DNA of 64,000 bases from the NCBI RefSeq assembly GCF_056746865.1, contig NZ_CM163382.1; one strand, written 5' to 3'. The position numbers and the translations under genes are program-made. Under the pieces are notes generated by a model. The model was not told the origin of the DNA. It searched no databases and saw nothing but the letters and a program-made list of their open reading frames with translations. Positions 17,555 through 62,146 of this stretch are shown here, piece after piece (position 1 is the first letter of the stretch; each line of letters begins with the position of its first letter).

Positions 17555-17791
17555 ATGTTGCAACGTACGCTGGGCAGTGGCTGGGGAGTGTTGCTGCCGG
17601 GATTGCTGATTGCAGGGCTGATGTATGCGGATTTATCGCCGGATCAGTGGCGGATTGTCATTCTGATGGGATTAATATTGACGCCGGTGATGCTGTATCA
17701 CAAACAGTTGCGGCATTACGTTTTGCTGCCATCGTGCCTGGCGCTTATTGCTGGCATCATGCTGATGATAATGAATTTGAATCAGGGATGA
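17555..17791 (+). CDS. yjjZ: small inner membrane protein YjjZ (DUF1435)
   Basis: ORF-track frame 17444..17791; start trimmed to ATG 17555 (MLQRTLGSGWGV, 78 aa); hydrophobic. Confidence 0.75.
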   Translation: MLQRTLGSGWGVLLPGLLIAGLMYADLSPDQWRIVILMGLILTPVMLYHKQLRHYVLLPSCLALIAGIMLMIMNLNQG

Positions 17792-17829
17792 AAAATCAGG
17801 GAAGAAACAAGAAAGGAAGTAAAGATAAT

Positions 17830-17916
17830 TGGTGCGAGGGGGGGGACTTGAACCCCCACGTCCGTAAGGACACTAACACCTGAAGCTAGCGCGTCTACCA
17901 ATTCCGCCACCTTCGC
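17830..17916 (-). tRNA. leuV: tRNA-Leu (anticodon CAG), copy 1 of 3
   Basis: Reverse complement reads GCGAAGGTGGCGGAATTGGTAGACGCGCTAGCTTCAGGTGTTAGTGTCCTTACGGACGTGGGGGTTCAAGTCCCCCCCCTCGCACCA, 87 nt with long variable arm and CCA end. Confidence 0.93.
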
Positions 17917-17950
17917 ACAGTCATCTTACTTTTTTTGATATCGCCTCGTT

Positions 17951-18037
17951 TGGTGCGAGGGGGGGGACTTGAACCCCCACGTCCGTAAGAACACTAACAC
18001 CTGAAGCTAGCGCGTCTACCAATTCCGCCACCTTCGC
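17951..18037 (-). tRNA. leuP: tRNA-Leu (anticodon CAG), copy 2 of 3; differs from the other two copies at one position in the variable arm
   Basis: Same 87-nt sequence except plus-strand A instead of G in GTCCGTAAG[A]ACAC, a C-to-U change in the tRNA variable-arm stem. Confidence 0.93.
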
Positions 18038-18065
18038 CCAGTGCGAGCAATATCAACGTGGTTTT

Positions 18066-18152
18066 TGGTGCGAGGGGGGGGACTTGAACCCCCACGTCCG
18101 TAAGGACACTAACACCTGAAGCTAGCGCGTCTACCAATTCCGCCACCTTCGC
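18066..18152 (-). tRNA. leuQ: tRNA-Leu (anticodon CAG), copy 3 of 3 (promoter-proximal)
   Basis: Identical to copy 1. Confidence 0.93.
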
Positions 18153-18261
18153 ATACCATCAATTCTTAAAAAGAATTGCTACCACGGAGGCGCATTCTAG
18201 TGGTTTTCAGCTTTTCGTCAATAGTTAATTATCGCCGGAGGTGTAATTGCTGGAAAAATGG

Positions 18262-18525
<264 letters not shown>

Positions 18526-25346: not shown

Positions 25347-26640
<1,294 letters not shown>

Positions 26641-30084: not shown

Positions 30085-30235
30085 GATGCCGGATGCCCCC
30101 AGTAGGCCTGATAAGACGCGTCAGCGTCGCATCAGGCAGTCAGCAGTGCTGCCTGATGCGGCGCGAACGCCTTATCCGGCCTACGGGCGAGTGCCGTGTA
30201 GGCATGATAAGAATCGGTCAGCATCAGGCAATAAC
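30085..30235. repeat. REP/BIME elements between deoC and deoA
   Basis: GTAGGCCTGATAAGACGCGTCAGCGTCGCATCAGGCA and GCCTGATGCGGCGCGAACGCCTTATCCGGCCTAC palindromic units. Confidence 0.8.
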
Positions 30236-56661: not shown

Positions 56662-56730
<69 letters not shown>

Positions 56731-56752
56731 CGCGTACAGGAAACACAGAAAA

Positions 56753-56784
56753 AAGCCCGCACCTGACAGTGCGGGCTTTTTTTT
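56753..56784 (+). terminator. thr attenuator terminator hairpin (AAGCCCGCACCTGACAGTGCGGGCTTTTTTTT)
   Basis: GC-rich stem plus T8 run between thrL and thrA, read from sequence. Confidence 0.9.
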
Positions 56785-56810
56785 CGACCAAAGGTAACGA
56801 GGTAACAACC

Positions 56811-62040: not shown

Positions 62041-62146
62041 CTGATGCGACGCTGGCGCGTCTTATCAGGCCTACGTTAATTCTGCAATATATTGAATCTG
62101 CATGCTTTTGTAGGCCGGATAAGGCGTTCACGCCGCATCCGGCATT
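62041..62146. repeat. REP element pair (BIME) between yaaX and yaaA
   Basis: GCCTGATGCGACGCTGGCGCGTCTTATCAGGCCTAC and GTAGGCCGGATAAGGCGTTCACGCCGCATCCGGCA. Confidence 0.85.

Follow-up and report, generated by a model that had tools for sequence, protein, structure and literature searches.

The three tandem tRNA genes on the minus strand of the 64-kb stretch of DNA analysed here (the window) are almost certainly the chromosomal leuQ-leuP-leuV operon of Escherichia coli, and the single base that sets the middle gene apart is the standard, inherited leuP allele U48, probably a near-neutral isodecoder. We put the probability of this reading at about 96%. The finding is real but ordinary, both the identity of the operon and the leuP variant being already known: leuP has been described in published papers as a one-nucleotide variable-arm variant. 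As stated the finding carries little weight, since the tRNA operon is a textbook one and its variant is on record for K-12.

The analysis itself yielded the gene calls, the sequence identities and the synteny, and also the variant's pairing geometry and its distribution within E. coli and across genera. ARAGORN found exactly three tRNA genes across the window, all of them tRNA-Leu(cag) on the minus strand, and the Rfam tRNA model scored each copy at 48.5 bits (gathering score 29). From the promoter-proximal end they are leuQ (18066..18152, C48 form), leuP (17951..18037, the U48 isodecoder) and leuV (17830..17916, promoter-distal, C48 form). A minus-strand spacer of 28 nt lies between leuQ and leuP (18038..18065) and another of 34 nt between leuP and leuV (17917..17950). 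Base-by-base comparison showed that each gene is 87 nt long, that leuQ and leuV are exactly the same and that leuP differs from them at a single position. A repeat search groups the three 87-mers in one family (D1) with a mutual identity of 99-100%, far beyond chance. The initial annotation had described the same arrangement of three 87-nt genes on the minus strand, with spacers of 34 bp and 28 bp, identical outer copies and one substitution in the middle copy, and all of this was borne out.

Of 5426 complete E. coli genomes, 5425 have a chromosomal match to the 901 bp around the tRNA genes, everywhere annotated as yjjZ and three tRNA-Leu; in strain FDAARGOS_497 the identity is 100%. In FDAARGOS_497 and K-12 MG1655 the array is flanked by yjjQ-bglJ-fhuF-yjjZ on one side and by rsmC-holD-rimI-yjjG-prfC on the other. 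Open reading frames corresponding to these neighbours were found in the window, placing the array at the same chromosomal position between fhuF-yjjZ and rsmC-holD. K-12 MG1655 shares the gene order leuQ-leuP-leuV with the C/T/C order at the variant site, the three tRNAs including the U48 of leuP, the spacers, the leader, the promoter hexamers and the yjjZ/rsmC flanks, and differs by one trailer base (CCC versus CCT) and by lacking one 111-bp REP-pair unit that this strain carries between rsmC and the promoter. The sequences following each gene, CCA-AAAACC for leuQ, CCA-AACGAG for leuP and CCA-AUUAUC for leuV, are identical to those of K-12 and match the text of the principal processing study (PMC2190699). 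In Table 1 of that study CCAAACGAG belongs to leuQ and CCAAAAACC to leuP, and the text has it the other way round; the sequence here and that of K-12 side with the text against the table. The operon is oriented head-on to replication, and in mismatch-repair-deficient lines the eight-C run present in each gene is a hotspot for indels (PMC8510543).

The base that distinguishes leuP is a plus-strand A at 17990, as established by direct reading and coordinate computation. The two 14-mers quoted for the variant and the common form in the initial annotation (GTCCGTAAGAACAC and GTCCGTAAGGACAC) are correct, but the coordinate attached to them, 17986, is not: the plus strand has a T there, within the same 14-mer as the variant base. 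On the tRNA strand the sole difference between leuP and leuQ/leuV is a C-to-U change at nucleotide 48 (C to T in the gene), a site that we place at about e12 in Sprinzl numbering from the linear positions of A15, G18G19 and U48. In both alleles the variable arm is a four-pair stem (G46-C57, U47-A56, C48-G55 and C49-G54 in the common form) closed by a UUAC loop. Since nucleotide 48 pairs with G55, the change turns the third stem pair into a U-G wobble, and cloverleaf pairing and constrained folding agree with the earlier proposal of a C-G to U-G conversion that preserves the fold. The isolated arm and the constrained whole tRNA adopt the same fold with either base. Unconstrained minimum-energy folding of the single tRNAs did not return the cloverleaf; the energies of the variant were obtained by evaluating the explicit cloverleaf and by folding with the other stems fixed. 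C48 gives a cloverleaf energy of -30.0 kcal/mol and U48 one of -27.1 kcal/mol, which is weaker by about 2.9 kcal/mol. Both alleles form the cloverleaf and the long variable stem-loop of a type II tRNA-Leu. The variant had been called a real isoacceptor variant; it is real but the term does not fit, as leuP is an isodecoder because its anticodon is unchanged. Elsewhere in the molecule, an A5-C68 mismatch in the acceptor stem (linear positions 5 and 79), flagged by Rfam, is present in all Enterobacteriaceae copies, and Morganellaceae (e.g. L012 and L034) have G5-U68 at the same pair.

For the elements recognised by leucyl-tRNA synthetase (LeuRS) we draw on the literature. Leucine identity in E. 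coli resides in A73, the A15-U48 Levitt pair, G18G19 and A20a, and neither the sequence nor the fold of the long variable arm correlates with leucylation (PMC9976931). All three copies preserve these nucleotides, at linear A84, A15 with U59, G18G19 and A21. The leuP tRNA with U48 is thus most likely a functional isodecoder, and we infer that it is near-neutral because the E. coli LeuRS makes no use of the variable arm.

The allele is common in E. coli. The exact U48 87-mer was found in 4536 of 5430 E. coli records by a word-11 search with the 87-mer itself. A megablast query of 94 nt, made of the 3' part of leuP and the adjoining spacer, matched 4845 of 5426 genomes and was 100% identical in 3380, a count in which a change at the variant site cannot be separated from spacer polymorphism; the 87-mer search and the reading of sample loci were added for this reason. 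The leuP-spacer junction had no match in 581 of the 5426 genomes (about 11%). To be without the exact U48 87-mer is not to be without U48, as an O111:H8 leuP carries U48 together with C26T. This second change makes the D-stem pair G10-C26 of that gene (L126 816-902) into G-U. The leuT of K-12, read directly, is of the C48 form, and a tRNA-seq preprint sets (leuP) apart from the identical group (leuQ leuT leuV). Comparison with K-12 leuQPV and leuT, the check suggested at the outset, thus identifies the locus as leuQPV and the variant as leuP.

In three genomes that we read from among those lacking the exact U48 gene, O157:H7 strain 1130, strain 131 and AVS0093, the array has collapsed and left one gene, a C48 copy (L003 2231-2317; L124 701-787; L125 701-787). 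All three keep the leader of leuQ and the trailer of leuV, which is what recombination between the identical outer copies is expected to give. With the array reduced to one gene such strains are without the leuP isodecoder, and the leuQPV array is where lineages such as O157:H7 have lost gene copies.

Upstream of leuQ the best consensus match in the region, at 10 of 12 positions, is a predicted sigma-70 promoter (18194..18221, minus strand) with a -35 hexamer TTGACG (18221-18216), a 16-nt spacer and a -10 hexamer TAGAAT (18199-18194). Directly after the -10 comes a G+C-rich discriminator, GCGCCTCC (18186-18193, minus strand), and the whole promoter block including the discriminator is essentially invariant in 16 arrays from some 10 genera. 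To judge from the spacing after the -10 hexamer, transcription presumably starts at about 18185, and the leader would then be 33 nt long (18153..18185, minus strand), with a conserved hairpin predicted by folding, CAAUUCUU-UUU-AAGAAUUG. Activation by FIS and an UP element as well as stringent control belong to the general background of the leuQPV promoter. A literature search on the leuV promoter and FIS returned nothing relevant.

The 3' trailer is C-rich and G-poor (17790..17829, minus strand) and runs antisense into the 3' end of yjjZ, whose stop codon ends at 17791. No minus-strand terminator-like site was found downstream of leuV, which is consistent with the Rho-dependent termination published for this operon. 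A 14-nt tandem repeat, AATCAGGGATGAAA then AATCAGGGAAGAAA, occupies 17780-17807 of the window and spans the yjjZ stop codon. Because it is C-rich and G-poor on the tRNA-sense strand, the repeat region may serve the convergent tRNA transcript as a site of Rho loading. Processing and termination are otherwise taken from work on K-12, where RNase P separates the tricistronic transcript without RNase E, the transcript has a half-life below 30 s in the wild type, Rho-dependent termination was inferred and PNPase and RNase II remove the trailer (PMC2190699). On this model the one strong sigma-70 promoter would yield a minus-strand tricistronic precursor of three tRNA-Leu1 (anticodon CAG, reading CUG), RNase P would release the individual tRNAs with no prior RNase E cleavage, and the unstructured 3' trailer would end by Rho action and then be trimmed by exonucleases, the last two steps as published for K-12.

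The spacers of the array are conserved across genera and are mutually complementary. When the precursor was folded, with the cloverleaves enforced or not, the leader hairpin was predicted together with three helices each enclosing one tRNA (window 17790-18185, minus strand). The predicted leuQ helix joins the leader's 5' end to the 5' part of spacer 1 (ACCAC); that of leuP joins the 3' part of spacer 1 (UUGAUAUUGCUCG) to the 5' part of spacer 2 (CGAGGCGAUAUCAA); and that of leuV joins the 3' part of spacer 2 (AGUAAGAUGAC) to the trailer. We followed these helices in an alignment of 36 arrays (A1; loci L012, L025, L034, L036, L037, L051 and L052 among the supporting evidence), in which the share of cells forming the 37 pairs is 87%, and drops to 30-53% once the partners are shifted by 1-3 columns. 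Changes on both sides were seen at seven of the 37 pairs, and the leader hairpin has compensatory changes at two pairs across genera. Shuffling of the flanks only gave z-scores of -4.2 for E. coli, -5.0 for Salmonella and -4.0 for K. oxytoca, and values of -3.4 to -5.7 came from Xenorhabdus, Morganella and Photorhabdus, which have two-copy arrays with flanks of unrelated sequence. Kosakonia oryzendophytica and Proteus alimentorum showed no helix signal in the shuffled-flank z-scores. The outer part of the helix enclosing leuV aligns poorly across genera in A1, with 69% of cells paired; folds of the individual species retain the pairing in a shifted register. In the processing study, whole-transcript structure predictions are mentioned as unpublished only (PMC2190699). 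Spacers held in duplex, as the folding model has them, could explain the lack of RNase E cutting there, and the conserved predicted helices would then offer, if true, a concrete structural reason for dependence on RNase P over RNase E.

Position 48 was then compared across Enterobacterales with a 43-mer carrying U48, a query that biases the scan of representative genomes towards U48-containing arrays; at least 120 stretches matched, counts in which species are not independent. The matches listed include Escherichia albertii, E. whittamii, Salmonella arizonae, Citrobacter, Klebsiella, Raoultella, Enterobacter and Kosakonia, as well as Phytobacter, Pseudocitrobacter, Morganella, Proteus, Xenorhabdus, Photorhabdus and others. 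The three-copy arrays among them number 40 and read C-U-C in 31 cases, with the U always in the middle copy, C-C-U in seven and U-U-C in one. The C-C-U arrays among the matches listed belong to the Enterobacter/Lelliottia clade, Pluralibacter and Trabulsiella; the clade proper also has U49 (a wobble with G54) in copies 1 and 2, which Pluralibacter and Trabulsiella do not. In the C-C-U arrays of Enterobacter, Lelliottia and Huaxiibacter (L008, L036, L082, L085, L118) we also observed A5C in the first two copies. In the alignment all 36 leuQ genes have C at position 48 and 29 of the 36 leuP genes have U; across these 36 arrays identity is 98.5-99.1% for the tRNAs, 83% for the leader, 80-85% for the spacers and 39% for the distal trailer. 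The solitary U48 genes among the matches listed sit in argX-hisR-leuT-proM, that is, they are leuT with the leuP allele (L006, L011, L019, L035, L038, L046, L073, L081). U48 is the leuT base in Citrobacter, Klebsiella, Enterobacter, Raoultella, Escherichia whittamii, Morganella and Xenorhabdus. This distribution across genera shows the leuP allele to be old and copy-specific in Enterobacteriaceae, and U48 to be inherited from an ancestor common to many other Enterobacteriaceae.

Such persistence raises the possibility that the dimorphism (leuQ with C, leuP with U, leuV with C, and leuT with U in most genera) has long been maintained by selection and not by drift. The two isodecoders may differ in stability, modification, fragment production or nuclease sensitivity; or else a mismatch in the middle repeat could limit the recombinational loss of copies, or the mis-pairing of identical neighbours in a precursor where each tRNA would be held by its own predicted leader/trailer helix. 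The recurrence of C-U-C in most of the three-copy arrays listed, over many genera, speaks for selection, as does its retention where the distal trailers of the aligned arrays have diverged so far, which could mean constraint. The presence of U48 in leuT of the seven taxa named above points the same way, and the three collapsed E. coli arrays fit recombination between identical outer copies. However, the genome scan targeted the U48 allele alone and its species are not independent, and the pattern is not universal, with C-C-U in the Enterobacter/Lelliottia clade, Pluralibacter and Trabulsiella and with C48 in E. coli leuT. Moreover the leuP-spacer junction goes unmatched in about one E. coli genome in nine, with a single C48 copy in the O157:H7 sampled, LeuRS makes no use of the variable arm, and a strain deleted for the whole leuVPQ operon, built and studied in published work, is viable. 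On balance we regard maintenance by selection as unlikely, and drift of a near-neutral isodecoder as the better account.

It is very improbable that the middle gene is a duplicate in decay or without function. That leuP is the sole changed copy and that the change weakens a stem would suit such a history, but its covariance-model score equals that of its neighbours, it keeps all LeuRS identity nucleotides, it is conserved across genera (98.5%) as strongly as leuQ and leuV, the spacers flanking it are conserved too, and the reference set of the tRNA-seq preprint has it as a separate expressed gene. With no broken stems, no lost identity nucleotides and no lower score, we rejected a pseudogene reading of leuP. 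Least credible of all is that a sequencing or assembly error produced the A at 17990, or that it is a mutation private to this strain, as one might suspect of a single base inside repeated sequence, since K-12 MG1655 and FDAARGOS_497 have the same base, the large majority of E. coli records and at least 120 stretches from other Enterobacterales, in many genera, carry U48, and papers describe it; we rejected this reading as well.

The operon can be set beside several known systems. The leuT gene encodes the same tRNA-Leu1(CAG) and in K-12 is identical to leuQ and leuV, but it lies elsewhere on the chromosome in a mixed four-tRNA operon and in many other genera carries U48, the leuP allele. Its published processing is by RNase E and its orientation co-directional with replication (PMC2190699, PMC8510543). 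The valV-valW operon is the other one for which the processing study reports separation by RNase P without RNase E and a Rho-dependent terminator (PMC2190699). It too has tandem, nearly identical genes, and differs in consisting of two valine tRNA genes with a 4-nt spacer, which leaves no room for long leader/trailer helices like those predicted in leuQPV. The single-copy leuQ/V locus of O157:H7 and some other strains shares with the array its promoter, leader, trailer, neighbours and a C48 tRNA gene, and differs in having one gene, not three. E. coli tRNA-Tyr1 and tRNA-Tyr2 (tyrT and tyrV versus tyrU) make up another type II family, whose gene copies are distinguished solely by the variable arm and count as equivalent in function. 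Unlike leuQPV they concern another amino acid, and their variant copies lie in different operons.

The extra REP-pair unit noted above accounts for the longer gap between rsmC and leuQ, which measures 379 bp in this strain and 268 bp in K-12. REP-pair (BIME) units of 111 and 108 bp, about 2.5 of them in tandem, lie on the plus strand at 18270..18524 (Rfam naRNA4 at 18292-18374 and 18403-18485; repeat families D2 and D3), between the rsmC stop codon and the tRNA promoter, and are context outside the operon. Five further naRNA4/BIME units stand in tandem at 26122-26602 of the window (plus strand), repeating about every 100 bp, and there is one more at 30105-30181 (minus strand), 3.5 kb from the five-unit cluster. 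The threonine operon leader is present at 56666-56785 (plus strand, Rfam 121 bits), so the window crosses the conventional start of the E. coli map. A marginal match to the ES036/CssrF sRNA lies at 62067-62109 (minus strand), with 38.7 bits against a gathering score of 37.6.
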